Under the pieces are notes generated by a model. That model was not told the origin of the DNA. It made no database searches and saw only the letters and a list, made by a program, of their open reading frames with translations. A stretch of 64,000 bases of DNA from Acidobacteriota bacterium. GTDB lineage: Bacteria > Acidobacteriota > CAIWXX01. Made by a program: the position numbers and the translations under genes. The stretch is from assembly GCA_040755995.1 (NCBI GenBank), contig JBFMAF010000003.1:94210-158209 (forward strand). Direction: 5' to 3'. Shown in pieces: positions 8,081-64,000 of this stretch; the first letter of the stretch is position 1, and every line of letters starts with the position of its first letter.

Positions 8081-8299
8081 GTGGCGGAACCTCCTTTCAT
8101 CCAGGTATGCCGTGTACCCCTCTGAACAACCACTGTCTCGTAGTAGGGTCACTTCGGGTGCATTACTCAACCTCGGTTCTTGCCTTGCAGCGAGCCTCCC
8201 GATTCCACTCAGGTGCGTGGCAACCTCCATCTCACAGTCTGCCACGGCGTGATCGGAGCCCAACCAGCACCGGCTACTTGGCCAAGTCTACTCCCCGGG

Positions 8300-46298: not shown

Positions 46299-46631
46299 GA
46301 TCTTCCTCCTCTTGGCGCAGCAGTCTGCCCGTGAGGACGCCCTCCTATTGTACATGCGGCAGCGTCGAGCTTCGACAGGAAACTGAAACTGCGGGACAGC
46401 CTCTTCACCAGGGACTCTGCACAATCGCGCATTTCCGCACAACCGCCGGATTGTGGGTCAGTCAGGTCCGTTCCTTGAGGGTCGCTCCTCTGTGTGGTAT
46501 AAACCGAAGTCCCGGGGATTGAATGCACACCGAGACCTTTCACAACTCAGCGCACACCGGCGGCTGCGAGCTCTGCCGAATCGGCCCGCCGCCGGTTGGG
46601 CGCCGCGCTCGCGCGGTCTGACGGACTCAGA

Positions 46632-49577
46632 ATGCCGGCGTCTCGCGAGCTGCTGATCCCGGGCTCGCGCCTCCGCGAGTACGAGATAATCGAGCCGATC
46701 GCGCGCGGCGGCATGGGCGCGGTGTACAGGGCCCGCCATGTTTATCTCGAACAGGAGAGGGCCATCAAGATCATTCTGCCGAACGTGTCGGAAATGGCGG
46801 GCATGGTTGACCGCTTCATCCGGGAGGCCAGGATTCTGGTGCGGTTGCGCCACCCGAATCTGGTCCAGCTATTCGAGTTCGGCACCCTCGAGGACGGGGC
46901 TTTCTTCATGATACTGGAGCTGATACGCGGCGAGAGCGTGCTCCAGCGCCTCCAACGGATCCAGCGAGTCCCCGTCAGCGATGCCATCAGGATCGTCCGC
47001 GAGGCAGGCCAGGGCCTCGCCGCGGCGCACTCCCAGGGGATAGTGCACCGCGACATCGCTCCGGACAACCTCCTGCTTGTCCAATCGGAGCAAGGCAAGG
47101 AGATAACGAAGGTGATCGACTTCGGCATCGCCAAGCCGATCGTCGAGGACACACAGCACACGCTGTCGAGCGGGCTGTACGTCGGCAAGCCGCAGTACAG
47201 CAGCCCGGAGCAGTGCGGGATAATGGAGCCGGCGGTGGCCATCGACCACCGCACTGACATCTACTCGCTGGGCGTCACTCTGTATTACATGGTCACGGGC
47301 AGGCTGCCTTTCGACGCCCCGACGCCTATCGCCTACCTATTCAAGCATGTTCAGGAGACGCCTCAGCCGCCCTCCACGCACATGGCTGCGGGTGAGCTGC
47401 CCCAGGAGCTGGATGCACTCATTATGCGTGCGCTCTCCAAGCGCCGCGAGGACAGGCACGCCTCGATGGAGGAGTTTCTGAACGAGCTGGGCCGCGTGCC
47501 GTGTGAGGGCAGGGAGGAACCGGAGCGCGCGGTGGCAGGGCCCGAGGTGCTGGTGCACGAGCTGATGGTCGAGCGGCGGTACTCGCAGGCCGTCAAGATA
47601 CTGTCGGGGCTCATCGAGACCGATCCGGGCAATCCTCGTTGGAAAAAGCTGCGCGACAGGGCGTTGAACGAGAGGGCGCTGAGGGAAATCCGGCGCGCCA
47701 AGAAGCTCCTCCGCGAGAAGCAGCTCGATCGCGCCAGAACTGTGCTGGTGCGGCTGGACATCGGACAGATCCCGAGTGAAAAGGTCGCCTCGCAAGCGAA
47801 ACAGCTCTGGGAGACGCTCGAAAGAGAGATGGCCCCGGCACCACCGGAAGAGGCAACTGCGCCGATCCCGGCGCAGGCGGCCGCGCCGGATGCGGCAGAG
47901 CGCGAGGGACGACGGCGCCTCCTCGAAGCCGCCGCGCAGCTCCATCAGGAAGGGCGGGACGACGAGGCCATCGCGAACATCATGTCCGTGATGTACGACG
48001 ACCCGGAGAACGAACGCGCGAGGGAGCTCGAGATCATCGTCAGGGTGTCGATGGAGGAACGGGAGATGGCCGGGAGCGTCGCCGAGCGCGCCAGGGCCAT
48101 TGCCGACCTCGCGACATCGGACAGGATGCACGAGGCTCGCGACAGGATCAAGGAGCTGCAGTCATTCACGGCCGATACGAGCTTCGAGGAGGCGAGCGAG
48201 AGGCTGAGCGCCGACACGCTCCAGCTCATCGCAGCCATCGAGAGCGGAAGCTATGAGCCGGCCTCGCAGACGTTGCGCGGCATGGCGGCAAGGCATCCCC
48301 TGCTCGCCCCCGTTAAGGAGGCTCTACAGGAGTACGCCGGCCGTCTGGAGACGCGGCATCGCCGATGGATCTTCGATCAGTATGTGGCGGCGGGCCGCCA
48401 GGCGATGGGAGAGAGCCGGTGGGCCAATGCAATCGAGTACTTCGACTTCGCCCTTCAGCTCGACGTGGACGATGAACCGGCGCGCCAGAAGGCGGCCGAA
48501 GAACGGGCGAGCGCCGAGGCAGCTGCGGCCAGGGAGAGACGGCTCCGGTCGCTTCTCTATCAGATCGACAGCGCGCTGCGCGCGGAGAGTTGGGACCAGG
48601 CGCTCGAGGTCTGCAACCAGGTGCTCGGGGGAGAGTTCGCGCTGGTGATACGCGAGGAGGAGATCGAGTGGGTTCGCAAGGCCATCGAGCGCGCCAACCT
48701 GCCGCGGATTGAGAAGGAGTTGTCGGCGGCGGAGGAACTCTGGTCGGCAGGTGACCTTGTCGGCGCTCGCGACCGGTACAGTCGAATCCTCGAGGCCTTT
48801 CCTCAGCAGGTGGCTGCATCGCAGGGACTGCGCGAGCTCGAGGATCTGCTCCGGCGCTTCAATTCGGCGGTCGATCGAGCCTCACAGCTGTTCGAGCGGG
48901 ACCAGCGGGAGGAGGCGCTTCGGCTATGGTTGGAGGCCTTGAACATGTGCCCGCAGGAGCACCGGGTCCGGGAGAAGATCGTCGAGGTCGAGACGCTGAT
49001 CGAGCGCGAGCAGGCCGCCCGCAGGCTCTTCCGCCAGTGCTCCGATGAGTGCCGGGCGTTCCTGGCTTCGAACCAGCTTGACGCGGCGCGTCAGGCGCTC
49101 GACCGCTCCGAGGCCTGCATCCGCCCGGGACTGCGCCTCGACGACCTCCGCATCGAACTAGTGGCGCTGCAGAGCGATCTGGAGAGGCGGGTCGAGAAAG
49201 AGAACCTCAGGCAGAAGCTGCTCGGCGACTTCCTGGCGTCCGCCAGGCGGCTCTATGAGGCAGGCGAGCTTGAATCAGCGCTTGGAAAGACGCAGGACCT
49301 GTTGAGAGCCGCCCCGGGAAACGAAGATGCATCGCGACTGAGACAGGCGATAGAGACTCAGCTCACCAAGGAACGCGTGGCTCGGCAGGTGTTTGCGAAG
49401 CAGTCCAGGAGGTGCCGGCAGAGTCTCGTCGCCGGAGACCTGGAAGACGCGCGCGTTGCGCTCAGGGAATGCCAGGCATGCCTGCAGCCGGAGCTTCGGC
49501 TGGAAGACCTTCGCATCGAGCTTGCCGTGTTGTATTCGGAGGTCGAGGAGGCGGCGGACGCAACGGGTCCGCGGTAG
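46632..49577 (+). CDS. Hanks-type Ser/Thr protein kinase with a long TPR-like helical tail
   Basis: IARGGMGAVY, AIK, HRDIAPDN, DFG, YSSPEQ, DIYSLG. Confidence 0.95.
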   Translation: MPASRELLIPGSRLREYEIIEPIARGGMGAVYRARHVYLEQERAIKIILPNVSEMAGMVDRFIREARILVRLRHPNLVQLFEFGTLEDGAFFMILELIRGESVLQRLQRIQRVPVSDAIRIVREAGQGLAAAHSQGIVHRDIAPDNLLLVQSEQGKEITKVIDFGIAKPIVEDTQHTLSSGLYVGKPQYSSPEQCGIMEPAVAIDHRTDIYSLGVTLYYMVTGRLPFDAPTPIAYLFKHVQETPQPPSTHMAAGELPQELDALIMRALSKRREDRHASMEEFLNELGRVPCEGREEPERAVAGPEVLVHELMVERRYSQAVKILSGLIETDPGNPRWKKLRDRALNERALREIRRAKKLLREKQLDRARTVLVRLDIGQIPSEKVASQAKQLWETLEREMAPAPPEEATAPIPAQAAAPDAAEREGRRRLLEAAAQLHQEGRDDEAIANIMSVMYDDPENERARELEIIVRVSMEEREMAGSVAERARAIADLATSDRMHEARDRIKELQSFTADTSFEEASERLSADTLQLIAAIESGSYEPASQTLRGMAARHPLLAPVKEALQEYAGRLETRHRRWIFDQYVAAGRQAMGESRWANAIEYFDFALQLDVDDEPARQKAAEERASAEAAAARERRLRSLLYQIDSALRAESWDQALEVCNQVLGGEFALVIREEEIEWVRKAIERANLPRIEKELSAAEELWSAGDLVGARDRYSRILEAFPQQVAASQGLRELEDLLRRFNSAVDRASQLFERDQREEALRLWLEALNMCPQEHRVREKIVEVETLIEREQAARRLFRQCSDECRAFLASNQLDAARQALDRSEACIRPGLRLDDLRIELVALQSDLERRVEKENLRQKLLGDFLASARRLYEAGELESALGKTQDLLRAAPGNEDASRLRQAIETQLTKERVARQVFAKQSRRCRQSLVAGDLEDARVALRECQACLQPELRLEDLRIELAVLYSEVEEAADATGPR

Positions 49578-49598
49578 GATCCGGACCGGCGCACCACG

Positions 49599-49895
49599 CT
49601 ACGCGTCATGCGGCAGAGATTGCACGTCCAGCGTTTCTCGACGGCGGCCGCTCCTCACCTCGACGCACACCACTCTGTCGGTGATGGTCAGGTTCACGTG
49701 GAACCTGCGGCTCTCGGAACCCCTGCGCTTCGTCTCCTCCTGGAACCAGACTCCGATTGTCGCCTCGACGCGCTCCGCGTCGGCGGCAGCCACGCCAAAC
49801 GCATCGAGCGCCTGGCGGCTCGATGCGAGCAGCATCGGCGCATATGCCTCGTCCGGAGGGACCGAGATGCTGACGTCAGGGGTGGTTTGCTGCAT
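49599..49895 (-). CDS. Small hypothetical protein, degenerate anti-sigma/HATPase-like
   Basis: 98 aa downstream of sucD; weak pattern resemblance only. Confidence 0.45.
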   Translation of the reverse strand: MQQTTPDVSISVPPDEAYAPMLLASSRQALDAFGVAAADAERVEATIGVWFQEETKRRGSESRRFHVNLTITDRVVCVEVRSGRRRETLDVQSLPHDA

Positions 49896-49904
49896 TGTCG
49901 AAAC

Positions 49905-49929
49905 GGGGGCGGCCGCGAGCGCCGCCCCC
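49905..49929 (-). terminator. GC-rich stem-loop downstream of sucD
   Basis: GGGGGCGGC / GCCGCCCCC, a 9-bp perfect inverted repeat followed by a short T run on the minus strand. Confidence 0.55.
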
Positions 49930-49936
49930 TGCGTGA

Positions 49937-50806
49937 CTACCCGAGTGCTTCCTTGATTTTGTCGCCTATATCGGCGGGGCTGTTCGACACGATGATCCCG
50001 GCTTCGCCCAAGATGCGCACCTTCTCGGCGGCCGTGTCTTTGCCTCCGGAGATGATGGCTCCGGCGTGACCCATTCGCCGCCCCGGCGGTGCCGTCTGAC
50101 CCGCAATGAATCCGACGACGGGCAGCTTACAGTTGGCCGTGATGAACTCGGCGGCCTCCTGCTCGGCCGAGCCGCCGATCTCTCCGATCAGAACGATGGC
50201 TTTGGTGTCGGGGTCCTTGATGAACAGCGCGAGCAGGTCGACGAAGGTGGAGCCTATGATCGGATCGCCGCCGATTCCGATGCAGGTGGACTGTCCGATG
50301 CCGAGGCAGGTCAGTTGATGGACCGCCTCGTAGGTCAGTGTGCCCGATCTCGAGATGACACCGACCGGCCCCTGCTTGTGGATGTGTCCCGGCATGATGC
50401 CCATCTTGGCCTTGCCGGGCGAGATGATGCCCGGGCAGTTCGGCCCGATCAGACGGGTCTTGCTGCGGTTCAGCACGTGCTTGACTTTGAGCATGTCGGA
50501 GGCAGGGATGCCTTCGGTGATGCAGACGACGAGGTCCATTCCGGCGTCGACGGCTTCGAGGACCGCGTCGGCCGCGAAGAGCGGCGGGACGAAGATCAGA
50601 GAGGCGTTGACGCTCTCCTTGTCGACCGCTTCCGCCACAGTGTTGAAGACCGGGATGCCGTCGACCGACATTCCGCCCTTGCCGGGTGTCACGCCGGCGA
50701 CCACCTTGGTACCGTAGGCGACGCAGTTCTTTGCGTGGAAGGTGCCTTCCTTGCCCGTGATTCCCTGGACAACGACCCTGGTTTTTTCGTCTAGCAGTAT
50801 GCTCAT
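49937..50806 (-). CDS. sucD: Succinyl-CoA ligase alpha subunit
   Basis: [34 protein letters not shown]. Confidence 0.99.
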
Positions 50807-50810
50807 GTGA

Positions 50811-51971
50811 TCATCCTCTGGCGAGCGCGACGACCTTCTCGGCCGCGTCCTTCATGCCGCCGGCGACGGTGAAGTTCAGCCCCGAGTTGCGCAGGATCTG
50901 GCTGCCCTGCTCCACATTCGTCCCCTCGAGCCGGATCACCATCGGCACATGCAGTCCCAATTCAGTGGCGGCCTTCACGATCCCCTGAGCGACGATGTCG
51001 CATCGCATGATGCCGCCGAAGATGTTGATGAGGACCGATTTCACGTTCTTGTCCGAGAGCAGGATTCTGAAAGCGTTCTTAACCTGTTCTTCGTTGGCAC
51101 CGCCGCCGACGTCCAGGAAGTTGGCCGGCATGCCTCCGGCCAGCTTGATGATGTCCATCGTGGCCATGGCGAGGCCTGCGCCGTTGACCATGCAGCCGAT
51201 GTTGCCGTCGAGCTTGATGTAGTTCAGAGAATACTTCGACGCCTCAACCTCCAGCGGGTCCTCCTCTTCGAGGTCGCGCATCTCGCGGATCTCGGGATGG
51301 CGGCCTAGCGCGTTGTCGTCGAAGTTCATCTTCGCGTCGAGCGCGAGCAGATCATCCTCAGCGGTAAGCAACAGCGGATTGATTTCGACGAGCGATGCGT
51401 CCGTCTCTTCGTACGCGCGGCACAGGGCCTGCATGAATCCGACGGCCTTGGAGAGGACGGTGGGGGGAAGCTTCAGGGCGAAGGCGAGCTTGCGTGCCTG
51501 GTACGGGCGGAAGCCCGCCGTGACGTCGACGTATTCCTTGTAGATGAGTTCAGGTGTTTTCTCGGCGACCTTCTCGATCTCGACGCCGCCCTCGCTCGAA
51601 GCCATCATCACGGGCCGCGCCGTTCTTCGATCGAGCACCATGCCGAGGTAGAGCTCGCGCTTGATGTTCGACGCCTCTTCGACCAGCACGCGCCGCACGA
51701 TCCGGCCTTCGGGTCCCGTCTGGTGCGTCTTGAGGCACATGCCGATGATTTCCTTGGCCGCCATCTCGGCATCGTGCGGTGTGGCCGCCAGCTTGATGCC
51801 TCCTCCTTTGCCCCTTCCGCCGGCATGGATCTGCGCCTTGACGACCACCTTCTTTCCGAGTCGCTCGGCGACGGCCCGCGCCTCCGCCGGCGTGAATGCC
51901 ACCTCGCCTTTGGGGCAGGCTACCCCATACTTCTTGAGGATGGACTTCGCCTGGTACTCGTGAACCTTCAT
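50811..51971 (-). CDS. sucC: Succinyl-CoA ligase beta subunit
   Basis: [40 protein letters not shown]. Confidence 0.99.
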
Positions 51972-52190
51972 CTAATCTCCTTTCCGCGCGCAGAAGCGCG
52001 ATCCGGCATGCTGCGATCGGCTATTCTGGACATCCGCGCCTTCCGAGTACGACATAGGATGCGGACGCCTTCCGGCATCCCGCGGGATGATAGTAGAACG
52101 GGAAGAGGCAGTCAAACTCTCGTTCGATCCATTCCGATGTCAACGTCGCCGACTGCGGTGTCGCCTGGATTGCACTCGTCTGGGGCAAAC

Positions 52191-53810
52191 TCAGGGAGCC
52201 TGGTAGCGACCCGAGTTGAATGTGTCGCGGCGAAACATCGGCCATTCGATCTTCGAATGATCGATCCGCGATGGGAGGTCCCAGAGATAGAACAGGCATG
52301 CGAGGTCGTTGTCTGGCACATTGCCTATTCCCAGCTCGACGTCTCCATCTCCATCCACATCGAGGGCGATCGGACCGGAACGGTCGACGTAGCCTCGCGG
52401 TTTCAATGGGAAGTAGGGCAGCCCCCTACCACGGCCGTTCCAGGCCATCAGGTACTTGGACGGGTACGCGTTCGCGCTCACGATGTCGTTCGCGCCGTCC
52501 CCATCCATGTCGGCGACTGCGAAGCCGGCCGGAAACTTCTGATAGACGGGAAACCCGTCGAAGGTCGTGCCGTCCTGATCCAGGAGGTAGACGGCGTGCG
52601 GGTGGCCGACAACGATTTCGGGGCCGGGGTCCCCGTCGAACTCTGCGAGGGCGAGACGGTTCTCGAGGAAGTCGGTGTACTCGGGGAGCTGGACCGGCCA
52701 GCCCCGCTGCCTGACGCCGTTTTTATCAAGGCAGTACGCCTTGGTCAGGTCTTTCGCGACGACCTCGAGATCGCCGTCGCCGTCGAGGTCACCCAGGACC
52801 ACAGACTCGAAGTATGACCACCAGTACTTCTCGAGCGTGACAGGCCAGCCCTTGGCCAGCGCGCCGTCCGAGCGTCTGGCGTAGATCCTGTTGCAGTTCT
52901 TCGACCCAGTCTCGCTCGTGTACATGACCGCGATGACGACCTCGACATGCCCGTCGCCATCCAGGTCGCCGACCGCTGGTGTGGCAGGGTTGAATTCCCT
53001 GTACGCGTAGTTCCGGGGCCACCCCCTCAAGTTGCGGCCTTCGTGGTTGAATGCGAAAGTCTGGCCGTACCGTTGCGAGTTGTAGACAACATCGAGGCGT
53101 CTGTCTCCATCGAGATCGGCCAGCACTGGCGAGGTCTGAATATGCGCCCCATCTCGGTGAGGATACTGATCGTCAACCAGCTTCGGCCAACCCTCGATCA
53201 CTTGAGCACCGTGGTCGACCGCGTAAAGGAAGCCGTCGTTAGAGCTGATCACGACTTCGAGGTGGCCGTCGTTGTCAAGGTCGCCGCAGGCCGGCGTGGA
53301 GATCACGTAAGACATTGTTTTGAACGGCCAACCAGCCACACGAGTTCCATCGTGGTGCCAGGCGTAGACTCTTGAGTCATAGCTGCCCTGGATGATCTCG
53401 ATGTCTCCATCTGCATCAAGGTCTGCGAACACCGCCGACGCGAGCACGCCTGACTTGTCTCCACGCCTCAGGGGCACTGGCCACCCCTTCTGTGCCGGCG
53501 GGACTGCCCAGGGCATCTTCGGCTCGTCACCCGCGGCGCGGATGCTGGTCAAAAACGGGTAGGACGGATTATCCGGCCAGCTCTCGAGTGGTTCCATCGG
53601 AGGTATCTTGAGCCGGCTAAGACTGACCGCCTGCGGCGATGAAGTCAGCCGGATCCACGGGCGACCGTCGATGGACACGTACGAGCCGTCTCGTGCGCGT
53701 GCGAGGCGCAGGCTCGGAGTCTCGCCAGCCATTCGCGACTCGCCTGCCACGACGGCCCCCGCAGGGCCATTTGTCAGCACCACCAACATCAATGGCTTTG
53801 TGAATCTCAT
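52191..53810 (-). CDS. FG-GAP/VCBS repeat beta-propeller protein, paralogue 1
   Basis: Repeated ADLDGDG..E(I/V)V and G....GWP/GFP units, C-terminal WPMFRRD..NSG; GGAGG RBS. Confidence 0.88.
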   Translation of the reverse strand: MRFTKPLMLVVLTNGPAGAVVAGESRMAGETPSLRLARARDGSYVSIDGRPWIRLTSSPQAVSLSRLKIPPMEPLESWPDNPSYPFLTSIRAAGDEPKMPWAVPPAQKGWPVPLRRGDKSGVLASAVFADLDADGDIEIIQGSYDSRVYAWHHDGTRVAGWPFKTMSYVISTPACGDLDNDGHLEVVISSNDGFLYAVDHGAQVIEGWPKLVDDQYPHRDGAHIQTSPVLADLDGDRRLDVVYNSQRYGQTFAFNHEGRNLRGWPRNYAYREFNPATPAVGDLDGDGHVEVVIAVMYTSETGSKNCNRIYARRSDGALAKGWPVTLEKYWWSYFESVVLGDLDGDGDLEVVAKDLTKAYCLDKNGVRQRGWPVQLPEYTDFLENRLALAEFDGDPGPEIVVGHPHAVYLLDQDGTTFDGFPVYQKFPAGFAVADMDGDGANDIVSANAYPSKYLMAWNGRGRGLPYFPLKPRGYVDRSGPIALDVDGDGDVELGIGNVPDNDLACLFYLWDLPSRIDHSKIEWPMFRRDTFNSGRYQAP

Positions 53811-53957
53811 ATGCCCTCCTGGCCTACGACTGCATTCCTGTCGGCGGCGACCATTCCATCGGATCTGAATTCGTGTCGAGATCGATTGACTTCTCAACGC
53901 CCTACGTTCTCGCACGGCCTGCGTTCTCATGCTTCGCCTGCTGGCGTCGCGGGCGTC

Positions 53958-55622
53958 TCACCGGGGGCCGCGATCGCCGACGGCGGAGAGTCCTTCCTGC
54001 GGTGGATAGAAGCCCGAGTTGTAGGCGTCGCGGTCGTGAGTGGGCCACTCGGTCATCTGTGGGTTGTACGCAAAGGGCAAGTCCCACATGTAGAAGAAGT
54101 GCTCCTTCGATAGACGTCGACCGTAGTCCCCTATTCCGATGTCCACGTCGCCGTCTCGGTCGATGTCGCAAATGAGAGGAGTAGAGTACATGGTAGCTCG
54201 TGTTCTCAATGGGAACCCTGCAACCTTCGTGCCGCCGCTGTTCCACGCGTAAAGGCCGCGGCGCGGGTAGTAACGGCCAGCTACGATTTCGTTCTGACCA
54301 TCGCCGTCGATATCAGCAACCGCAGGCATTATAGGGTATTCAACAAGTGCTGGAAACCCTTCCAATGTGCTTCCATCACCATCCAGAAGATATATGCCGT
54401 CCCAATTGCTCGCGACGACTTCAAGGTCCGGGCTCGAATCGAAGTTGGCGAGGCACAAAGTATGTGGCACAAGGTCTCCCCTCATCCATGTATAGGGCCA
54501 CCCTTGCAGCATCTTGCCGTACCTGTCCAAGACGTAGACATTTTTCACGTCCCTTGCGGCGATGTCCGGGTATCCATCCCCATTCACGTCGCCGATCACA
54601 ACTGTGGTGATCCAAGACCAGTAGTGTTTTTCCAGGGTGACAGGCCATCCTTTCATCGGACTTCCATTAGATCGCCAGAGGTGGATGCGATTGTAGTGTT
54701 CATCAATGATGTCCCCGGGGTACATGACGCCCACCGCTACCTCGAGACGACCGTCGCGATCGACGTCGCCGACCGCGGTGTCGCTTGGATTGAACTCGTG
54801 TGGGGCAAACTTTCGCGGCCATCCTCGGACACGCTCTCCGTTCCGGTTGAAGACGAAGACACAATCGTACATGTGGGAACTGAAGACTATGTCCAGGTAC
54901 GAGTCACTGTCGATGTCCGCCAGGACCGGCGATGACTGGGAGTCCGCACCTCCCTGATGGGGTATGCGCTCATCGACCAGTTTCGGCCATCCGGTGCGAA
55001 CGTGGGCATTCTGGTCAAGCACGTAGAGTAGGCCGTCGTTGGAGGCGACAACCACCTCGGGGAAACCATCCTTGTCAAGATCGCCGACGGCGGGAGCCGT
55101 GACGATGTATGAGGCGGTGGTAAAGGGCCAGTTGGCGACCAGCTTGCCCGTGTGATGCCAGGCATACACCTTGCCATCCATGCAGCCGAGGATGACTTCG
55201 AGGTCGTCATCACCGTCCAGATCCGCGAACTTGGCGGATCCGGAGATTCCGTATTCACTGATCGAGGGCGCGGTGACAGGCCAGCCCTTCACGTAGGGAT
55301 ATCCTCTCGTCTCAAGAAATTCCGACGCGGAATCAGGCGTAGAGGCCTCTCGATGGTACTGGCCCTCTTGATCCTCCAAGCGCAGGCCGGCGACCGGCGG
55401 GAGTATCGATAGCAGCTCCTCGCGGGAGAGGCCGGTGCTGTGTGGATGAAGTCTGATCCTGGGTGCCCCATCGATGGACAGGCACGGCCGCCCGCGCTGA
55501 TCGCACACGAGATACCCAGTGCGTCCCGCCGATCTGCTGCCCGCGCTCTCCCTGGGAGAGAGCCAGGCAAGGCCACCCAGCAGGAAGGTGCCGACCAATG
55601 CGCTAGTACCCAATCTCTTCAT
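53958..55622 (-). CDS. FG-GAP/VCBS repeat beta-propeller protein, paralogue 2
   Basis: Signal peptide; same repeat units, collinear with paralogue 1, ending EWPTHDRDAYNSG. Confidence 0.88.
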   Translation of the reverse strand: MKRLGTSALVGTFLLGGLAWLSPRESAGSRSAGRTGYLVCDQRGRPCLSIDGAPRIRLHPHSTGLSREELLSILPPVAGLRLEDQEGQYHREASTPDSASEFLETRGYPYVKGWPVTAPSISEYGISGSAKFADLDGDDDLEVILGCMDGKVYAWHHTGKLVANWPFTTASYIVTAPAVGDLDKDGFPEVVVASNDGLLYVLDQNAHVRTGWPKLVDERIPHQGGADSQSSPVLADIDSDSYLDIVFSSHMYDCVFVFNRNGERVRGWPRKFAPHEFNPSDTAVGDVDRDGRLEVAVGVMYPGDIIDEHYNRIHLWRSNGSPMKGWPVTLEKHYWSWITTVVIGDVNGDGYPDIAARDVKNVYVLDRYGKMLQGWPYTWMRGDLVPHTLCLANFDSSPDLEVVASNWDGIYLLDGDGSTLEGFPALVEYPIMPAVADIDGDGQNEIVAGRYYPRRGLYAWNSGGTKVAGFPLRTRATMYSTPLICDIDRDGDVDIGIGDYGRRLSKEHFFYMWDLPFAYNPQMTEWPTHDRDAYNSGFYPPQEGLSAVGDRGPR

Positions 55623-55704
55623 GGTCCACTCCAATGGTTTCATCGATAGTGCTGATCTAAGGGCGCACGGTCTCCAGGGTACATGCCGCTACATGAAAGG
55701 CGAT

Positions 55705-56922
55705 TCAGGTCGATCGCCGACCGCTCTTCGGTGCTCGCGCGGATGCTGCTCGCCAGTACGTGCCCTTGTCCTCGCTCTTCGCTATTAGACCCTTGTTCAC
55801 CAGGTATTCGAGCCTAAAGTAGATCTCGGAGCTCGTGAGGTCATGCAGGCCCGCATCTTGCTTCAGCTCCTCGTCCTTGTAGAAGCGGAGCAGAAGGTCG
55901 CCGTGGGTGACGGGCGAAGGACCAAGCATGTCGCACAGAGTCTTGTTCACATGGTCAAGCGCGCGGTCTGCGCTGCCCGAGGCTGTCTCCGGCGGCGTCG
56001 ACAAAGTCTGGAGCGCATCATCGAAGCCGATGTAGTCCTCGCCTGGATCGTAGTAGCAGACTTCAAACCCCTTGACCGTCTCTAGATACGTCCCACGTCT
56101 CACCCCCTCCCTGTTCCGTGGTGCCAAGACATACTCGGATTCGAGCTGGGCTTTGTACGTCAGGCTGAGTTCCTTCTTCCTGCGAACTATCTCCTCGTCA
56201 ACCTCTGTGCCTATGAATACTACGGTATGCTTCAGTAGAACGGCCCGAAGGAAGTAGTCGATGGACGGACGTGCGATATAGAGATCGTCATAATCTTCCT
56301 CGGCGAGAACGACCTTGCCGTGCTCGACGTTCCCATGGAGATAGACCAGGAACGGACGCCTGAATGATGATGAACGAAGTACCCTTCCGAGGTTGTCGTG
56401 TTCGCCACGACACACTTGCCCCCAGTGCGTAGCGGTCGTTGGCCCGTACTTCTCGACAAGGACGTCGTAGTTAGTCGTTATGATGCCGACCCACGGAATG
56501 GCCAGGAGCGCGCGGAGGCGAGCCTCCATCCGTTTGCGCCGTGGATCAGTGGAGGGAAGCTCGTACAGATGGCGTGAGTCAAACAACTCCCTGATTCTCT
56601 CCGTCAACCACGGCTTGTCCGCGGATGCGAGCCTGATTGCCGACGCGGCCAAGGGGAGACGACCCTTCACGAGGCACTCGCGGGCATACTCGACGAATAG
56701 CCGCCGCGTTTCATCATTGAGCTCCCGCATGTCAGCGGTCTTGCCCCGGTTCTTGGACCGTTTCACGCTGGGGGGAACCAGCTCCTTTTCAAGCTCCGTG
56801 ACCAGCTGCTCTAGGAGGGGCTTCCACAGCGGCATCCCACAGGCTGCAGAAAAGCCCGCTCCCAAGTAGGCGACGCAACGGCGATCCCACACTGCCTTCC
56901 TGAGAGTCTCTAGGTTAGACAT
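55705..56922 (-). CDS. SIR2-like (SIR2_2) domain protein with a C-terminal winged-helix-like segment
   Basis: YLGAGFS..CGMPLW, IITTNYD, YLHG, VVFIG motifs; C-terminal SSEIYFRLEYLVNKGLI. Confidence 0.88.
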   Translation of the reverse strand: MSNLETLRKAVWDRRCVAYLGAGFSAACGMPLWKPLLEQLVTELEKELVPPSVKRSKNRGKTADMRELNDETRRLFVEYARECLVKGRLPLAASAIRLASADKPWLTERIRELFDSRHLYELPSTDPRRKRMEARLRALLAIPWVGIITTNYDVLVEKYGPTTATHWGQVCRGEHDNLGRVLRSSSFRRPFLVYLHGNVEHGKVVLAEEDYDDLYIARPSIDYFLRAVLLKHTVVFIGTEVDEEIVRRKKELSLTYKAQLESEYVLAPRNREGVRRGTYLETVKGFEVCYYDPGEDYIGFDDALQTLSTPPETASGSADRALDHVNKTLCDMLGPSPVTHGDLLLRFYKDEELKQDAGLHDLTSSEIYFRLEYLVNKGLIAKSEDKGTYWRAASARAPKSGRRST

Positions 56923-57505
56923 GCGCTCTCCCTCGGTCTACAAGGGCCTGTATGTACTCTGCCAGCTTCTTCACGGAGGAGTGCAACGCGTCGGCGGGAG
57001 CCAGATGCGAGAGCCAGGCAGATAGCGCGGGGAGTCTGCCTAGAACGAGGTGCTTTTCGTTTTCGCTCAAGGCTCCAAGATCACCCGTGGCTGCCTTGAT
57101 CCGTTCAATCCTCTCGATTGACTTGTTTACGTAGTCAACCACAATCGGCCAAAGACCTTGATTATGTAGCATGTGATCGACTCGGTAGAGTACGGACACG
57201 GTAGTCACGGAGAGGGCGCCGTATCTGCACTTGCTCATCTTTCTCAGTTCTTCGTAGCTCAACCCGGTTTCGTCTCTGATCTTCTGGATCTGCTCCGGGT
57301 TCGCAGGAGACGGACTTCTCTCGATCGATAGAGGAAGCCGGCGGATGTAATAATTGTCCGGCGGGACCAAGAGCACGCTGCCCCTCTTCTTGGGTCGTGG
57401 CCTGAGACCGCCGGAATTGCCTATGGGTCGTTGCGAGCCGAATTCTTCGAATTGCAGCTTGCTCCTCAGTCCAGCCAGAATCTTGTCTTGACCAATCAGC
57501 CCCAT
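56915..57505 (-). CDS. Hypothetical protein with an XRE-like HTH segment
   Basis: IQKIRDETGLSYEELRKMS...LSVTTVSVL; GGAGG RBS; overlaps the SIR2 start by 8 nt. Confidence 0.7.
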   Translation of the reverse strand: MGLIGQDKILAGLRSKLQFEEFGSQRPIGNSGGLRPRPKKRGSVLLVPPDNYYIRRLPLSIERSPSPANPEQIQKIRDETGLSYEELRKMSKCRYGALSVTTVSVLYRVDHMLHNQGLWPIVVDYVNKSIERIERIKAATGDLGALSENEKHLVLGRLPALSAWLSHLAPADALHSSVKKLAEYIQALVDRGRAHV

Positions 57506-57706
57506 CGTGTTTCATCCTCCATCCTGCTTGTCATCGCAGTCATTGTGGCGCCGGCGCCTGTTTCTCAGCGGCCTGGCTGCGGTGAGATAGGCCAACTTCG
57601 TACTGTTCGGGTATTCATCGGCAGTAGTAACCATGCTTGATTGCGTTCAATACGCCCAACTCAACCACCCAGTGGCCGATCGTGAACCTCCCACGGAATC
57701 ACCAAG

Positions 57707-58632
57707 TCAGCAGTACGAGTATGGGTGCCAGAGCTGCGGGGTGTCGATCCCGCGATGGCTATCGATCGCCGGATCCGGGCTGATCCACCGGTATTGCAAG
57801 TGGGCGAGATCGCAGCGCCGAAATAGTCGAAGCCTGTCGAGCTATCGCGTTCCCTGCCGCTGAATTTGAGCGTTGGGGCGGCGGTGTCGCCGGTCTCGAG
57901 CTGGATGCCGCCGAAGGGGTCGTAGGTGGCGGCGTAGGTGCGGGTGCCGCTCGAGTCCGTTACTACGCGTGTAGAATTGATCTGGTCCTGCGCGTAGAAG
58001 TAGAACTTGCTCTCCTTCGGACGGTATTCGGCTACCAGGCGGTTGCCGGCGTAGATGTAGTCACGGTCGCAGAAGCCGTTGGTGTCGTATTCTGCCAATA
58101 GCTTGCCGTCGTGGCCGTAGACGTAGTAGACGACTTCGCTGCCGGGCGGCGGGGTGAAGGGAGTCGGCGCCTGCTGCTCGGGATCGCCTCCGGGTGGCGG
58201 CGCGTCTTCGGTCCACTGGTTCCAGCCGCCCTCGGGTGGCGCCTCGTCCGGCCATTCGTAGGTGCCGTCTTCGGGCGATTTCTCCCACATGAAGTCGGGC
58301 AGGCCAAGCTCTGCATCAGCGGGGGCATAGATGATGTTCGGATCTCCCTCCCAAACTCTTGATGCGTCTCCAGGCGTGTCATCCAGCGTCAGCCTCGTGC
58401 CGTCCCATGCCAGGGCGTAGTCCTCCTCGGTGCCCTTCGCCGGAGCCTCCGCTGCTGCAGCTGGGGCCGCGGGCTTCCTCCGGCTCGACGGCGAAGCCTG
58501 AGCGGGCGTCGTCGGAACGAACATCGATGGCGAAACTGAAAGGCCGGACGGCGCCCTCGATCCTCCCGCAGCCACCGCCAGGGAAGTCGTTGGTCCAAGC
58601 CCTGACATGGCTGACCAGGTCAGCTCACTCAT
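57707..58632 (-). pseudogene. Degenerate orphan Rhs-core cassette (frameshifted, no toxin tip)
   Basis: Close copy of about 59710-60435. After FDYFGA (about 57812) the homology moves to another frame: LAHLQYRWISPDP...PQLWHPYSYC, then a stop at 57707-57709. Confidence 0.85.
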
Positions 58633-60435
58633 GCTCGCCGCCTTCACTGGTTCGGGCTAGCGCCCACTCCAAGACTTCCTTGTCGGTGTCCTTCTCGAGA
58701 TCGAAATGCCTCGATGCGCGTGGTATCTCTTGCCAGCCCCAGCCGTACGCTCTCGCCATGGCACAATAGGCAGCTTCGCGTGTGATTCGTTCTTCTGCCG
58801 CGTCTCGAAAAAGGTGAAGAAGCCTTCTGAGCAAGTCCGCTTCCGGCTTCTTTCTCAAGTATTCCCCAGTGATGGATATCGCCATCAATTTGACGTCATC
58901 ATCCTCGTCCCACGGTGCACCATGAAGGTACTCCTTCACCGTCGCAAGGTACTTCTCGGTCTTGCCCCAGAAATGACATAGAATCTGGAGTGCCAATCGC
59001 ACCAGCATTGGATCGTCTTTTCTCTCCAGGAACGAGACAACCAGCTCCTCGTGTTTGAGGGAAAACCCCCTCCCTATGATGTGCAAGAGAGTATATTCAC
59101 TTAGGTTTTCATCCCTTGCCGTGGTGAGAACTCGAGCTACGTCATCGATTTCCTCTTGGGATATTTCGCCCCGCTTGGCCTTCTGCAAGAGTTCGTCGAA
59201 ATTCATCGCGGCAGGTACCCTTCTGAGTGATCCAGTAGCTTGCTTGCCTCACTCAATTCCTTCTCCAACGCAGCCCTCTGCTCGTCAGTAAGGTTGGGAT
59301 CCGCGCGAAGCTTATTGATTTGCTCTATACGCTTTACCAAGGCCCTCTGCGCCTCTTGAACCTCTGTGACATGATCATAGGGAGTGCCGTCAGGCTTTCT
59401 GGCGACCACCTGTCCTTGCGATTCCCTGCGCGCCGCATCGAGGTCCGCCTGGGTAAGATGTTCCTTTACATTGTCGGTCTTCGTCGCCCCGGCTTTCGCA
59501 GCCGCCCCTATGATTACGGTGGCGACAGCCGCCCCTTGAATCGTCTTGTCGACTGCCGGGGTAGTGGCAGAGAACTGTCCATCCATGTAAGCGACGGGCG
59601 GAGTGTAGTCGAATCCCACGGTCGACATGATTTCTCTGAATTGGGCGACTACCCAGTCCAATATGTCCCGTCCATCGGGATCCAACTTCGTAAGGGGATT
59701 GTTCTCGCAATAAGCGTATAGGTTCCACAGTTGCGGATTGCTGAGGGCGTCGTCATGGTTCATGACCGGGTCGACGGAGATCCACCTGTACTGCCCGTGT
59801 GCGTACCATCTAGCGCCGAAATAATCGAAGCCCGTCGAGGTATCCCGTTCCTTGCCGCTGAACTTGAGCGTTGGGGCTGTGGTGTCGCCGGTCTCGAACT
59901 GGAGGCCGCCGAAGGGGTCGTAGGTGGCGGCGTAGGTGCGGGTGCCGCTCTGGTCCGTTACTACGCGTGTAGAGTTGATCTGGTCCTGCGCGTAGAAGTA
60001 GAACTTGCTCTCCTTCGGGCGGTACTCGGCGATGAGGCGGTTGCCGGCGTAGATGTAATCGCGGTCGCAGAAGCCGTTCGTGTCGTATTCCGCCAGGAGC
60101 TTGCCGTCGTGGCCGTAGACGTAGTAGACGACTTCGCTGCCGGGTGGCGGGGTGAACGGCGTCGGGGCCTGCTGCCCGGGATCGCCTTCAGGCGGCAGCG
60201 CGTCCTCGTTCCACTGGTTCCAGCCGCCCTCGGGGAGTGGCTCCTCCGGCCATTCGTAGCAGCCATCATCCGGCGATTTCTCCCACATGAAGTCGGGTAG
60301 GCCAAGCGCCTCGTCAGCGGGAGCATAGATCATGTCCGGATCTCCCTCCCAAACCTTCGAGGCGTCTCCAAGCGTGTCTTCCAGCATCAGCCTGCTGCCA
60401 TCCGGCGCGAGCCCATAGTCCTCCTCTGTGCCCTG
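57710..60435. repeat. Dispersed direct repeat of about 0.7 kb (57710-58435 vs 59710-60435, offset about 2 kb)
   Basis: Long identical runs such as gccgccgaaggggtcgtaggtggcggcgtaggtgcgggtgccgctc and gatctggtcctgcgcgtagaagtagaacttgctctccttcgg occur in both copies. Confidence 0.92.
58625..59206 (-). CDS. Putative immunity protein for the Rhs toxin (HEAT-repeat-like)
   Basis: ATGA overlap with the toxin stop; helical DD..VR..A repeats; visibly more AT-rich than its flanks. Confidence 0.8.
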   Translation of the reverse strand: MNFDELLQKAKRGEISQEEIDDVARVLTTARDENLSEYTLLHIIGRGFSLKHEELVVSFLERKDDPMLVRLALQILCHFWGKTEKYLATVKEYLHGAPWDEDDDVKLMAISITGEYLRKKPEADLLRRLLHLFRDAAEERITREAAYCAMARAYGWGWQEIPRASRHFDLEKDTDKEVLEWALARTSEGGEHE

Positions 60436-63400
60436 CGGCGGGGCTTCCGCTTCCCCGGTTCCGTAGTCCAGCTCCGGGTCTTCGCCCTCGCCACCGGTGC
60501 TGCACTGCGTGCAGATCCTGAACAGTGGGCTCAGGTCGAACGGATCGCCGTCCAGGTCGCTCACCTTGATCACGCACTTGCTGGAGTTCCAGTTCGGCAC
60601 GGACCAGGGGTAGGCCTTGGGACTGGTGTTGTTCGTGACCGAGGCCGCAATGACCGTGGGGAATGTCTTCCCACCGTCCGTGGAGGCAAGGATCTTCACC
60701 TTGGGAACGCTTCCAGCGGTGGTCCATTTGATCATGAGGTTGCTCCCCGCCACCACCTTCTGATTCACCTTCGGATTCGTCACCGTGATGCTCGGCACGA
60801 TTGAGAACGCCGTGTCATTCGTGTCCTCCGAGCCCGGGTACGCCACGCTGGCATGCTTGACCCTGATGAAGCAGTTGTTCGACTCCGGCCCGCTCACTAT
60901 CCAATGGCAGTGCCCCTCATTCTTGATCACTTCGTTGTCCGGGTCAATCGGGACGTACGGGCCTTCCCTGCCGGTCCTGGATAGCTCGACCCGCACCTTC
61001 GACGGGTTGCCCTTAGGTATCCACTGGATCACGTAGTCCTTGCCGATCGGCACCTCTTCTTCTTTGGCGGGACGCTCGACCTTGATGCTCTCGATGATAG
61101 GAAAGTCGGCATGGCTCGTATCTGACGGAATGCCGTCGGCATCCTGGATCCTTATTCTGCAGTGGGGCTGCGCATCGCCACTTTGGGGATAGCCCCAGAC
61201 CTTCCAGTTGAACCAGCCCTGCTTGTTGTCAGCACCATTCTTGATCGTCTTCGGGTACTCTCCACCGCTGTCGATGGAGAGCTGGATGTTCACCAGCGGC
61301 ACCTGTTCGGTGTGAGTCGACTTCCAGAGTATCTGCTTGAAAGTCCCGATCACACACGCGTCGTTGGGGCCGTCCGGGTCGGTTACGTAGATCTTCGCCG
61401 GAAAATCGGCGATCGTGAACAGCTCGGCGCTTGTGCCGGACGCATGTTGGCCGCCGATCTCGGTGACCTTGATCCTGCAGAGCTCGGACGGGTGGTCCCC
61501 CGGGACATCCCATAGATACTCGCCGGTGTTCGGGCACGTCTCCGCCACGTTGGGCCAGTGCCCCCCGTCGTCCCAGGTGTACTCTATCTTGACGTTCTGG
61601 ATGGCGCCGGTCGTGTCCCACTTGAGCGTGTACCTGCTCCCCACCTTCAGTGTCTGCCCGCCGTTCGGGTAGAGGATCCGGATGGAGTGGGTAACGTCCT
61701 TTATGGTGAAGAGCCCGGTGCTCTTGCCCCACTCGCGGCCGTCCATGTCACTTGCGCGTACCTTGCACTGGGTGGACAACGTTGGCGGCACCTCCCACTT
61801 GTACGGCGGCTGGTACGCGACCTTGTCTGCGATCTTCGTCCAAATGGGGTTGGCCACGCTCGCGTCAGTCGTATATTCGATCTTCAGGCCGCGGCCGCCA
61901 GTGATCGGAGGGTTGAGCTGCCAATTGATCTTGCAGATGCTCCCGGCCGTGAGCTTCGTCCCGTTCTTGGGGTAGAGCACCTGGAGCGTCTCGGTGGAGG
62001 CAGGCTCGACGATCGAGAAGAATTCGTCGGACTTGTCGGATGCCTGGCCCGCTTTGTCGCTGATTGCGATGAGGCACTTCGTGGATCTCAGCTCTTCCGG
62101 CACAAGCCAGTCGTAGTACCCGGTGTCATGTCTGATGACTTCCCCAGGCAGCGGGACCGTCCGATAGATCGGCCTCTCGGCATCTCCGTTGGTCGTGAGA
62201 CCGATGGTCACGTAGCTCAGCTCGTTCCAGGTGCCGCTCACGTGCCACCTGATGCGGCACTTCTTCCCAGCCTCGATCTGCTCGCCTCCGTTCGGGTAAT
62301 CGATGGTGATCGTCGGCGTATCCGCCGACTGCGAGATCGGGCGGACCGTCCTCATTCGCATCGCGCGGTCGTCGTACAGGTTCTCAGTCAACACCGTGGG
62401 CACCGTCTGCCCCGACAGGAGCCTGCTGACCTGCGTGAGGCGATTGAAAGCGTCCCATACGTACGTGTTCATACCGTCGGCTGTCAGGTTGCCCCGTAGG
62501 TCATACTGGAATCCGGCGATGCGGTTCGACCCGTCGTAGGTCTTGTTGAATACGGTGGTGTTGTCCTCCTTCACAGTCAGCATGTTGCCCCAGGCGTCGG
62601 GATCATAGGAGAAGTTCGTCACGCGGCCGCCGGCCCCATAATCTGCAGTCTTCAACCGGTTCAACGAGTCGTACGTGAAGTCGGCACTCGGTCCAGGATC
62701 GGCGTTGTCGAGGTGCGTGATGTTGTAGTTGTTGTCATAGCGGTATTTGTTTCGATAGCGAAGACTCCCGGCTGCAGCGAGCGCATCGCAGATGCTGCCG
62801 TTGCCGGCCGGCACCGCGACCGCCCTGGCGGCGGCGCCGTAGGCCAGCGCGGCGTCGAGCAGATGGCCGGCCTCGTCGTAGTCCGAGCCGAAGGCACTGG
62901 TGCTTCCGGCCAGGTCGATCTTGCGGGGCTGCCTGTAGCTCCCGTAGACTACGCTCTCAATCAGCGTGGTGTCGCCGCTGCCGCTGTTGAAGCTCACCTT
63001 GTTCGGGGCGTCCAGACCGTTGTTGAGGATGGTGGCTACCTTGGTATCGGGGTACTTCACCATCTTGAGACTGTTCCCGCCGTCGTAGTCGTATACCAGC
63101 TTCTTGTTCGAGATGCCCGGGATCACGAGCGTCTCGCCCTTGACCGAGCCGAGGGAGTTGTAGCTGATGTTGATCCTCTTCGGTCCCTTGGTGCTCGATA
63201 TCCCGGTCAACAGGCCGTTGGTGTTGTACGAGTATGTGATGGTTTCATCGGCGGAGGTGACTGTTTGCAGCTGGTTGTCGAACCGGTAGGTGTAGTCGAT
63301 GATGGTGCCGCCCCACGTCTTGCGCGACAGGTTGCCTTCGGCGTTGTAGTCGAGCTGGATCGTGTCGGTTTCGGGATGATGCTCGTATGCCACCTGATCC

Positions 63401-64000
63401 ATCCCATTGTAGGTCCACCAATGCTCGCGGCTGCCCGCGAGCTTCGCGTTGGTCAGGCGACCGAGTCCGTCATACTGGTTGGTGGCCGAGTGGCCGTCGG
63501 GCTGCGGTTCGTGGACAGTGGTGATGCGACCGGGCAAGTGAGCGTACTCGTACTTCCAGACGTACCCCTTCGCATCGGTGACCGTCTTCTGCGCTCCCGG
63601 GAAGTCGACTGTGACCTCCTTCTGTTCCGGGTCCTTCGTGCTCCTGATGTCGCCTGCCGCATTGTAGCCGTATTCCCATTGGTTGCCGGCGTCCGTGCTC
63701 CCCTTCGACTCCTTCTTCACTCTGCCCTCATCGTCGAGCAGCTTCAGGTAGTTCAGCGTGACGGTGTAGTCGGTCTCGGTGTGTCCGAGCCCGCGTCCAA
63801 GGCCGTCCCAGCTCTTCACTATCCGCTTCGACGAGCCGCGATCGATGGTCACGCTGTTCTTGCTCCAGGCGGCGTCGATGTCGTCGAAGCCCGGTGGCAT
63901 GTTTACGAAGTCCACCCTTCCGAGGTTGTCGTAGGTGAACGTCATGGTTCCGTCATACTGGTTTCTCTCCGATTTGATGGAGCTGTCATACTGACTGATA
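59203..64000 (-). CDS. Rhs/YD-repeat polymorphic toxin with six inserted Ig-like repeats and an Ntox28-like C-terminal toxin; 5' end beyond the window edge
   Basis: YD repeats; core KFSGKERD..TGFDYFGARWY...RWISVDP...NLYAYCENNP..LDPDG; tip KEHL...D...K.DG..YDHVTEV. The frame is open to position 64000. Confidence 0.95.
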   Translation of the reverse strand, partial: ISQYDSSIKSERNQYDGTMTFTYDNLGRVDFVNMPPGFDDIDAAWSKNSVTIDRGSSKRIVKSWDGLGRGLGHTETDYTVTLNYLKLLDDEGRVKKESKGSTDAGNQWEYGYNAAGDIRSTKDPEQKEVTVDFPGAQKTVTDAKGYVWKYEYAHLPGRITTVHEPQPDGHSATNQYDGLGRLTNAKLAGSREHWWTYNGMDQVAYEHHPETDTIQLDYNAEGNLSRKTWGGTIIDYTYRFDNQLQTVTSADETITYSYNTNGLLTGISSTKGPKRINISYNSLGSVKGETLVIPGISNKKLVYDYDGGNSLKMVKYPDTKVATILNNGLDAPNKVSFNSGSGDTTLIESVVYGSYRQPRKIDLAGSTSAFGSDYDEAGHLLDAALAYGAAARAVAVPAGNGSICDALAAAGSLRYRNKYRYDNNYNITHLDNADPGPSADFTYDSLNRLKTADYGAGGRVTNFSYDPDAWGNMLTVKEDNTTVFNKTYDGSNRIAGFQYDLRGNLTADGMNTYVWDAFNRLTQVSRLLSGQTVPTVLTENLYDDRAMRMRTVRPISQSADTPTITIDYPNGGEQIEAGKKCRIRWHVSGTWNELSYVTIGLTTNGDAERPIYRTVPLPGEVIRHDTGYYDWLVPEELRSTKCLIAISDKAGQASDKSDEFFSIVEPASTETLQVLYPKNGTKLTAGSICKINWQLNPPITGGRGLKIEYTTDASVANPIWTKIADKVAYQPPYKWEVPPTLSTQCKVRASDMDGREWGKSTGLFTIKDVTHSIRILYPNGGQTLKVGSRYTLKWDTTGAIQNVKIEYTWDDGGHWPNVAETCPNTGEYLWDVPGDHPSELCRIKVTEIGGQHASGTSAELFTIADFPAKIYVTDPDGPNDACVIGTFKQILWKSTHTEQVPLVNIQLSIDSGGEYPKTIKNGADNKQGWFNWKVWGYPQSGDAQPHCRIRIQDADGIPSDTSHADFPIIESIKVERPAKEEEVPIGKDYVIQWIPKGNPSKVRVELSRTGREGPYVPIDPDNEVIKNEGHCHWIVSGPESNNCFIRVKHASVAYPGSEDTNDTAFSIVPSITVTNPKVNQKVVAGSNLMIKWTTAGSVPKVKILASTDGGKTFPTVIAASVTNNTSPKAYPWSVPNWNSSKCVIKVSDLDGDPFDLSPLFRICTQCSTGGEGEDPELDYGTGEAEAPPQGTEEDYGLAPDGSRLMLEDTLGDASKVWEGDPDMIYAPADEALGLPDFMWEKSPDDGCYEWPEEPLPEGGWNQWNEDALPPEGDPGQQAPTPFTPPPGSEVVYYVYGHDGKLLAEYDTNGFCDRDYIYAGNRLIAEYRPKESKFYFYAQDQINSTRVVTDQSGTRTYAATYDPFGGLQFETGDTTAPTLKFSGKERDTSTGFDYFGARWYAHGQYRWISVDPVMNHDDALSNPQLWNLYAYCENNPLTKLDPDGRDILDWVVAQFREIMSTVGFDYTPPVAYMDGQFSATTPAVDKTIQGAAVATVIIGAAAKAGATKTDNVKEHLTQADLDAARRESQGQVVARKPDGTPYDHVTEVQEAQRALVKRIEQINKLRADPNLTDEQRAALEKELSEASKLLDHSEGYLPR

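Follow-up and report, generated by a model that had tools for sequence, protein, structure and literature searches.

What is the pair of genes that lies beside an Rhs locus in a 64,000-nucleotide (nt) stretch of an Acidobacteriota genome (contig JBFMAF010000003.1, positions 94,210 to 158,209; hereafter the window), and does it form a system of its own? The two genes encode a protein of 196 amino acids (aa) and, overlapping it by 8 nt, a 405-aa SIR2 protein. The first-pass annotation, made from the sequence alone, took them for a candidate minimal two-gene NADase defence or toxin-antitoxin system in which an XRE-like helix-turn-helix (HTH) protein inhibits or senses for the NADase. Comparison with related loci leads us to a different reading, which we favour with some reserve: the pair forms the effector part of a larger, four-gene operon of which we found no description and which likely serves abortive anti-phage defence, with SIR2 predicted to deplete NAD+. 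We are confident of the architecture and homology of this operon, consider a defence role of the family probable, and find it quite possible, if somewhat doubtful, that the window pair is still working with the 196-aa protein as a direct regulator of SIR2.

The operon around the SIR2 relatives

The 405-aa protein carries a SIR2_2 domain (Pfam E 1.1e-16; 61.6 bits against a curated cut-off of 24.5) as its sole Pfam match, and no classical sirtuin deacylase family was matched. The domain and motifs of a SIR2 NADase effector are both present: GAGFS (residues 21-25), TTNYD (149-153) and HG (196-197) are all intact, as first annotated, and all 13 aligned homologues share T149, T150, N151, D153 and H196 without exception. 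PADLOC models gave matches to ThsA, LmuA and Dsr2, at the level of the domain only, as did NCBIfam, and the nearest solved chains include ThsA, DSR2 and KomC (profile E-values of 1e-12 to 1e-15); these matches bear out the assignment of the protein to the defence-NADase type. The last ~80 residues resemble winged-helix models with template-modelling (TM) scores of 0.60-0.70 (FUR, DprA-cluster, MC6 and WHD_BLACT rows), in a comparison of model against model in which every row lies below the Atlas naming bar, and they are kept across 20 aligned family members. The short winged-helix-like C-terminus proposed earlier therefore stands.

Relatives of this SIR2 were found in 21 metagenome and 10 genome loci. 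Two weak, unrelated SIR2s (L021 and L031) were excluded, the identical L005, L010 and L015 were counted once, and L006, L011, L014, L017 and L018, with less than 200 nt upstream of the match, were set aside, leaving 22 distinct loci. The pairing is conserved: a homologue of the gene for the 196-aa protein (gene 3) stands upstream of SIR2 (gene 4) in 21 of the 22, the sole locus without it being L028, where SIR2 is broken at its 5' end. Further upstream, a HicB-like gene is present in 19 of 19 loci with enough DNA, and in the main clade a histidine kinase gene of ~610 aa precedes a receiver-HicB gene in 13 of 13 such loci. The main-clade gene order is soluble GAF kinase, receiver-HicB, HicA-helical, and SIR2 with a winged HTH (wHTH). 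For the family, the idea of a minimal, self-standing two-gene system has therefore to be given up; in the pair, the four-gene operon is at its most reduced.

The upstream-gene profiles were built from these same loci, so that their scores speak for family coherence only; independent tests of the operon are the neighbourhood survey, the inter-clade profile, and the main-clade-only genome search. Distances among the gene 3 and gene 4 proteins are correlated over 17 loci (Mantel r 0.82, 0 of 2000 permutations) and also within the main clade only (r 0.48, 11 loci, 2 of 2000 permutations), which indicates joint inheritance, not binding. A complex prediction for SIR2 and the 196-aa protein scored 0.00 and bears neither way.

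The HicB-like domain was matched to HicB by HHalign (probability 93, E 2.4e-7), with a score of 39.7 against at most 16.2 in 30 shuffles. It had no meaningful match among the sequences of solved structures, and the match lists of fold searches with the receiver-HicB model were filled by receiver domains; because the structure searches were uninformative, the homology rests on the profile comparison and on the strand-strand-strand-helix order of the model. Main-clade proteins have the HicB-like domain fused after a receiver domain (fold Z 16.6, root-mean-square deviation (rmsd) 2.2, 125 aligned), in which D24, D69 and K131 are invariant in 14 proteins, and D25 and S106 are kept in at least 90%; these residues are the acidic pair, the phospho-acceptor Asp, the Ser and the Lys. 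The kinases carry HATPase_c in 10 of 10 scanned proteins and GAF in 4 of 10, with an invariant H-box (H378-D379), N507 and DxGPG box. Peak hydropathy stays below 1.7 in 9 of 10, with no clear membrane helix, and the main-clade kinase, its H-box intact, is predicted to be soluble.

The four-gene system is rare and patchily spread over several phyla, with full loci from Planctomycetota, Pseudomonadota, Verrucomicrobiota and a Bacteroidota-labelled assembly. The gene 3 family comprises 208 clusters at 50% identity (E<=0.001), and most of the 150 clusters listed are stand-alone proteins of 165-197 aa. In 400 genomes of the window's own phylum, the gene 3 profile found one short, ordinary HicA-like gene (L060), and in sets of 400, 350, 350 and 400 other genomes it found no match (centres not counted). 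No further copy of gene 3 with the helical extension was seen in the 1,900 sampled genomes, in each of which 8-9 candidates were scored, so that misses are possible. A member of the SIR2 family was absent from two other genomes of the same family, and the SIR2 profile found one distant SIR2 (E 4.9e-18) in 40 relatives. Plasmids gave no match to a main-clade gene 3 protein, and viral contigs gave distant SIR2s only (21-29% identity).

Several loci depart from the common form. The winged helix is absent from the SIR2 proteins of L013 (1474-2364) and L030 (5959-6828), which are ~290 aa long and cluster together (support 99/98). In L029, SIR2-wHTH is followed by a fused SEFIR/TIR domain (5974-8352, 793 aa), with a second TIR gene downstream (9516-10895); this locus is possibly a two-NADase variant. 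A transposase-like insertion (insertion sequence, IS) separates gene 3 from SIR2 in L022 (4408-5993), gene 3 of L023 is frameshifted (5122-5946), and the 5'-broken SIR2 of L028 (5905-6777), which has no partners, lies close to hipA and integrase genes. The 424-aa protein P0166, for which there is no locus, joins receiver-HicB in frame with the latter part of a gene 3 protein and may be either a real fusion or an assembly artefact. Finally, three genes stand in a row in L060 (1471-2561, minus strand), among them one for a HicB-like protein and one for a 92-aa HicA-like protein that is akin to the gene 3 product and has no helical extension; this is likely a parent type.

Fold of the 196-aa protein and its missing histidine

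Searched against Pfam, PADLOC and NCBIfam, the 196-aa protein gave no match at E<=1. A word-based homologue search returned the protein itself alone, and the Atlas held nothing usable; the gene 3 relatives came from gene neighbourhoods and a profile search. An AlphaFold (AF2) model made with 19 homologues (predicted local distance difference test, pLDDT, 85; predicted TM score, pTM, 0.81) runs in the order helix, three strands, two helices and four long helices, and its alpha-beta-beta-beta-alpha start superposes on HicA structures. The top Foldseek match was 1whz (probability 0.96, TM 0.71 by target, E 0.5). VIA-align placed 69 of 70 residues on the same structure (Z 7.2, rmsd 2.5) and 63 of 66 on HicA3 4p78_D (Z 6.3, rmsd 2.6); the accessible text of PMC6159526 names 1WHZ and 4P78 as structural homologues of HicA. 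At the level of the model, the protein thus has the HicA fold. The four-helix extension drew generic helical matches only in structure searches, with no specific fold match.

A chain of profiles leads to the same family. The main-clade gene 3 proteins match a HicA alignment from other genomes (probability 88, E 3.2e-6), with a score of 37.6 against at most 16.6 in 25 shuffles and with their RH motif falling on the GSH His, and the main clade is in turn linked to the window's clade at E 7e-6. A profile of the window's clade from which the window protein was left out still matches that protein (E 3.9e-15). Furthermore, when 137,403 six-frame segments of the window's genome were ranked with a profile of the main clade only, the window protein came out on top (E 0.012), which we regard, at the sequence level, as a non-circular link to the family.

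It is highly improbable, on these data, that an XRE-type HTH protein binds DNA here as antitoxin or repressor of the SIR2 gene. Such a protein would be all-helical and would match an HTH_3-type profile; the model instead shows a mixed alpha-beta domain, and no HTH Pfam family was matched at E<=0.5 in the window protein or its 19 homologues. The segment first read as an HTH (residues 70-91) consists of the final helix of the HicA domain and a short helix that comes next. The two helices come after a three-stranded sheet and superpose on that final helix of HicA. The homologues, moreover, retain the HicA His and stand behind a HicB-like gene. What speaks for an XRE protein is a weak match of the main-clade profile to the XRE structure 2ofy (E 1.1) and a low Atlas feature match (score 0.84) to a cluster with HTH_31 on 36% of its members.

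The single conserved His of HicA is required for RNase activity, according to the accessible text of PMC6159526. In the alignment, a His lies within 3 columns of this site in 102 of 108 full-length main-clade gene 3 proteins and in 5 of 14 window-like ones. The window protein has none at the start of strand 2, where an Arg/Lys-rich loop stands in for it in the window's clade. By the HicA rule, a protein lacking this His cannot be an RNase, and the 196-aa protein is predicted to be catalytically dead, with the fold of HicA and not the function of a HicA toxin.

The same clade appears to have lost further parts. On a midpoint-rooted SIR2 tree (30 rows, no outgroup; short and duplicate rows excluded), the window groups with L001-L005 on a long branch (support 100/100) and is the first split inside that group. 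In 4 of 4 loci of the clade with upstream DNA, the HicB-like gene is short and has no receiver, and the 3 loci whose upstream DNA extends over 0.6-3.9 kb show no kinase. These features point to a stepwise shedding from four genes to two in the window's lineage.

Described systems and a possible mechanism

Known SIR2-linked NADase defence systems are listed in the accessible part of PMC13464706. Thoeris ThsA, DSR2, Sir2-HerA, SIR2-short prokaryotic Argonaute (pAgo) and KomC have in common with the window protein a SIR2_2-type domain, the GAGFS/TTNYD/HG motifs and a predicted depletion of NAD+. In contrast to ThsA, DSR2 and pAgo systems, a winged helix here takes the place of SLOG/Macro, of the long DSR2 sensor or of the Ago partner, and the partners within the operon are a HicA-fold protein, a HicB-like protein and a two-component pair. 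The PADLOC ThsA match covers only 92-194 of 478, the C-terminus is a wHTH and there is no neighbouring TIR, which sets the protein apart from type I Thoeris. It also differs from DSR2 (~1000 residues with a C-terminal sensor), being 405 aa long and reaching 18.3 bits with NCBIfam Dsr2 against a cut-off of 1400. The adjacent genes encode the HicA-fold protein, an FG-GAP protein and Rhs pieces, unlike in Sir2-HerA or SIR2-short pAgo, where a HerA ATPase or Argonaute gene is the neighbour. Indeed, as the first-pass annotation had stated, no TIR, HerA, Ago or STAND partner was seen among the open reading frames (ORFs) of 44000-64000. PADLOC 2.0.0 (2023) has no model for the tested kinase, receiver-HicB and gene 3 proteins, the 196-aa partner included, and no system that fits the operon. 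The operon likely functions as SIR2 NADase defence systems do, and it belongs to none of Thoeris, DSR2, Sir2-HerA and the pAgo systems.

The second likeness is to HicAB, in which a dsRBD-fold (double-stranded RNA-binding domain) toxin is encoded downstream of an antitoxin with a partial RNase H fold; the His is conserved in the main clade. Classes 6-8 of Gerdes 2024 come nearest, with hicBA order, extended HicA and large HicB, and HicA of class 8 also bears two extra C-terminal helices (accessible text of PMC10865869). The operon differs in that HicA is longer by ~100 residues, HicB is fused to a receiver, and kinase and SIR2 genes flank the two, while the window protein has neither the His nor a HicB. 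None of the 14 HicA contexts given in the same text includes a kinase gene, a receiver or SIR2, and the terms receiver, response regulator, Sir2 and sirtuin are absent from its main text and from two supplements. A HicA domain validated in defence is reported with DefensePredictor (available part of PMC13092281); the available part of PMC8195603 does not mention HicA.

Ambrosia resembles the operon in having a histidine kinase and a receiver inside a defence operon, and its phospho-acceptor is needed for defence, as stated in the accessible portion of 10.1101/2025.09.30.679545. The same source describes the Ambrosia receiver as bearing a winged helix and proposes that it regulates methylase and HNH nuclease genes at the level of transcription. 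Ambrosia combines XRE, methylase, kinase, receiver-wHTH and HNH genes, whereas the present operon has no methylase or HNH, the output of its receiver is a HicB-like antitoxin domain, and its effectors are a HicA fold and SIR2. The open full-text literature yielded no description of the four-gene operon, which large tables of predicted systems may hold unnamed. The family thus extends the contexts of HicA past the 14 published classes, and Pfam, NCBIfam and PADLOC have no models for it.

In the full form of the system, a cytoplasmic cue would alter the activity of the kinase, and phosphorylation of the receiver would loosen HicB from HicA; the freed HicA protein would cut RNA and switch on or release the SIR2 NADase. 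In the window, the His-less HicA protein would no longer be a toxin and would serve as a co-translated check on SIR2, with its dsRBD surface and basic loop binding foreign nucleic acid or a phage protein and thereby releasing the NADase. The window protein is more likely a brake or sensor of SIR2 than a standing activator, since a standing activator would be lethal, HicB is absent, and both genes are intact and coupled. The earlier idea that the partner restrains or senses may therefore be kept, with a repurposed toxin fold in place of a DNA-binding XRE repressor.

The complete scheme, which would make the operon an immune circuit of a new class, is offered tentatively, as less probable than not: a soluble phosphorelay would gate the antitoxin directly through receiver-HicB, freeing HicA for RNA cleavage and for the firing of SIR2, and kinase, receiver, His and antitoxin would have been shed in turn, leaving a dead toxin fold as the sole sensor or inhibitor of the NADase. 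If this is true, SIR2 NADases would gain a new trigger route, and the operon would provide, as far as our searches reach, the first response regulator with an antitoxin domain for its output; toxin release would be governed by phosphorylation, not by proteolysis or transcription. Natural four-, three- and two-gene versions would let the role of each part be tested.

The window copy and its surroundings

Neither the DNA upstream of the pair nor the rest of the genome, which is 99.8% complete, yielded a HicB-like gene (best E 0.058 and 0.22); in leave-one-out searches, HicB members of the clade would be recovered at E<1e-25. The adjacent HicB-like gene of all 19 related loci with enough DNA is thus missing here, and the leader between the pair and the Rhs stub holds no HicB-like coding. 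A kinase orthologue is likewise absent from the window's genome, with partial generic matches only. A frameshifted HicB remnant suggested by eye in 57490-57790 was rejected, since 2559 of 3000 random segments scored as well.

A relative ~95% identical to parts of both genes and to the leader occurs in two runs of one sediment study, and no RNA data set was listed as a holder; in both runs, it departs from the window sequence at 57656, with other DNA beyond. It shares the HicB-free, 151-nt leader, and no stop occurs among the listed differences in the covered parts. The SIR2 end shows 3 amino-acid and 4 silent differences. For its length, the leader has more differences (15 in 151 nt) than the coding sequence (~8 in 331 nt; p 0.0008, from one study and low-depth contigs).

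A number of observations weigh against the reading of the pair as the effector end of a defence operon. The loci were gathered via SIR2, so that their count is silent on gene 3 away from SIR2, and the genome samples added no case. HicA rows rank only 11 and 41 in the wide fold search, after generic helical matches to the C-terminal part, the E-value of the 1whz match is high, and the window's clade compared with HicA directly gives a weak profile match (probability 3, E 0.014). Of the 8 genome loci with the full system (L022-L027, L029 and L030), no more than 3 have a defence-type neighbour, and most genes next to full loci are either housekeeping or unknown. All 4 loci of the reduced clade with upstream DNA have a HicB-like gene, which the window lacks, and the window's partner protein shows, among 6 listed differences from the relative, 4 amino-acid and 2 silent changes, which are too few to make a case for selection.

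The last two points would also be expected if the family were real and the window copy an inactive remnant, recombination at the Rhs locus having removed the HicB-like gene and left the rest undecayed, and the neighbouring frameshifted Rhs stub fits the same history. We consider this rather unlikely. Both frames are open, and ribosome sites, overlap and all SIR2 motifs are kept; the window splits first in its clade on a long branch, so that a recent deletion is not required; and the relative has the same HicB-free leader, free of listed stops, with its differences concentrated outside the coding part.

The prevalence of other neighbours also agrees with a stress or dormancy switch, in which a two-component system gates HicAB and SIR2-wHTH is a DNA-binding, NAD-sensing regulator or a protein deacylase. 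GAF kinases commonly sense small molecules, with which such a switch would be compatible, and the modelled winged helix could bind DNA. This alternative is nevertheless decidedly unlikely. By profile, SIR2 falls with ThsA, DSR2 and KomC, away from the classical sirtuin deacylases; L013 and L030 have no winged helix, and that of L029 has a SEFIR/TIR domain behind it; and the occurrence is rare and sporadic. For the defence operon, the patchy spread, the rarity, the SEFIR/TIR fusion, the IS at L022 and the PADLOC-type defence gene just downstream at L027, L029 and L030 suggest defence-like habits.

The pair lies between an Rhs-Ntox28 gene, with a likely immunity gene and an orphan stub, and two FG-GAP genes. 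The stub is 87% identical over 674 nt to the main Rhs core. That the spot is variable, as annotated, follows from a paralogous Rhs-to-FG-GAP slot on contig C28 (L087, 14000-33999), which carries other cargo (a DUF5615/DUF433 pair, an XRE gene and a CHC2-Toprim primase), and from the relative leaving the window sequence at the far end of the leader; the window's genome yielded no copy of the DNA that the relative carries in place of the Rhs stub. The position directly behind an orphan Rhs stub, the usual place of immunity genes, would suit immunity cargo against Rhs toxin tips. It is scarcely credible that the pair is such cargo: the conservation of an Rhs-free operon in other genomes largely refutes it, with no Rhs domain in 63 scanned neighbour ORFs of related loci, and the paralogous Rhs slot in the same genome holds other mobile cargo.

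The features of the pair are collected in Table 1; both ORFs and their overlap agree with the initial annotation. The overlap suggests translational coupling of the two genes, each of which is preceded by a purine-rich ribosome site, GGAGGA in the case of the 196-aa gene. Their G+C contents (0.55 and 0.59) are slightly below the 0.63 of the genome. A promoter and terminator scan gave 3 promoter-like sites against 0.8 expected and 2 terminator-like sites against 1.8, a result that was left unused.

Table 1. Features of the gene pair and its leader, in window positions
Feature	Position	Strand	Basis
196-aa HicA-fold protein (gene 3), catalytic His absent	56915..57505	-	ORF, AlphaFold model, structure search
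HicA-like dsRBD domain, residues 1-91	57233..57505	-	model, structure search, profile chain
Arg/Lys-rich loop, residues ~20-43, at the position of the HicA catalytic His; typical of the window's clade	57377..57448	-	alignment
Four-helix extension of the 196-aa protein, residues 97-194	56924..57217	-	model; generic helical matches only
405-aa SIR2-wHTH protein (gene 4), predicted NAD+ hydrolase	55705..56922	-	Pfam, PADLOC, solved-chain profiles
TTNYD motif of SIR2, N151	56464..56478	-	sequence, alignment
H196-G197 motif of SIR2	56332..56337	-	sequence, alignment
C-terminal winged-helix-like domain of SIR2, residues ~318-395	55738..55971	-	model comparison, family alignment
8-nt stop/start overlap of the two genes	56915..56922	-	sequence
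Leader of the gene pair, ribosome site 57515-57520	57506..57656	-	sequence
Frameshifted orphan Rhs stub, context and outside the system	57661..58647	-	87% copy of the main Rhs gene core

Among the neighbours, the Rhs protein at 59203-63999 (minus strand) has internal Ig-like repeats and an Ntox28 toxin tip (E 6.7e-25), and the 193-aa HEAT-like gene after it (58625-59206, minus strand) is the likely immunity gene. On the other side of the pair, two tandem FG-GAP repeat proteins (52191-55643, minus strand) are 46% identical, with a third copy on C28; an FG-GAP protein query gave no match in two genomes of the same family. Finally, a 993-aa Ser/Thr kinase with TPR-like repeats is encoded at 46596-49577 (plus strand), and its kinase domain matches PADLOC kinase models.

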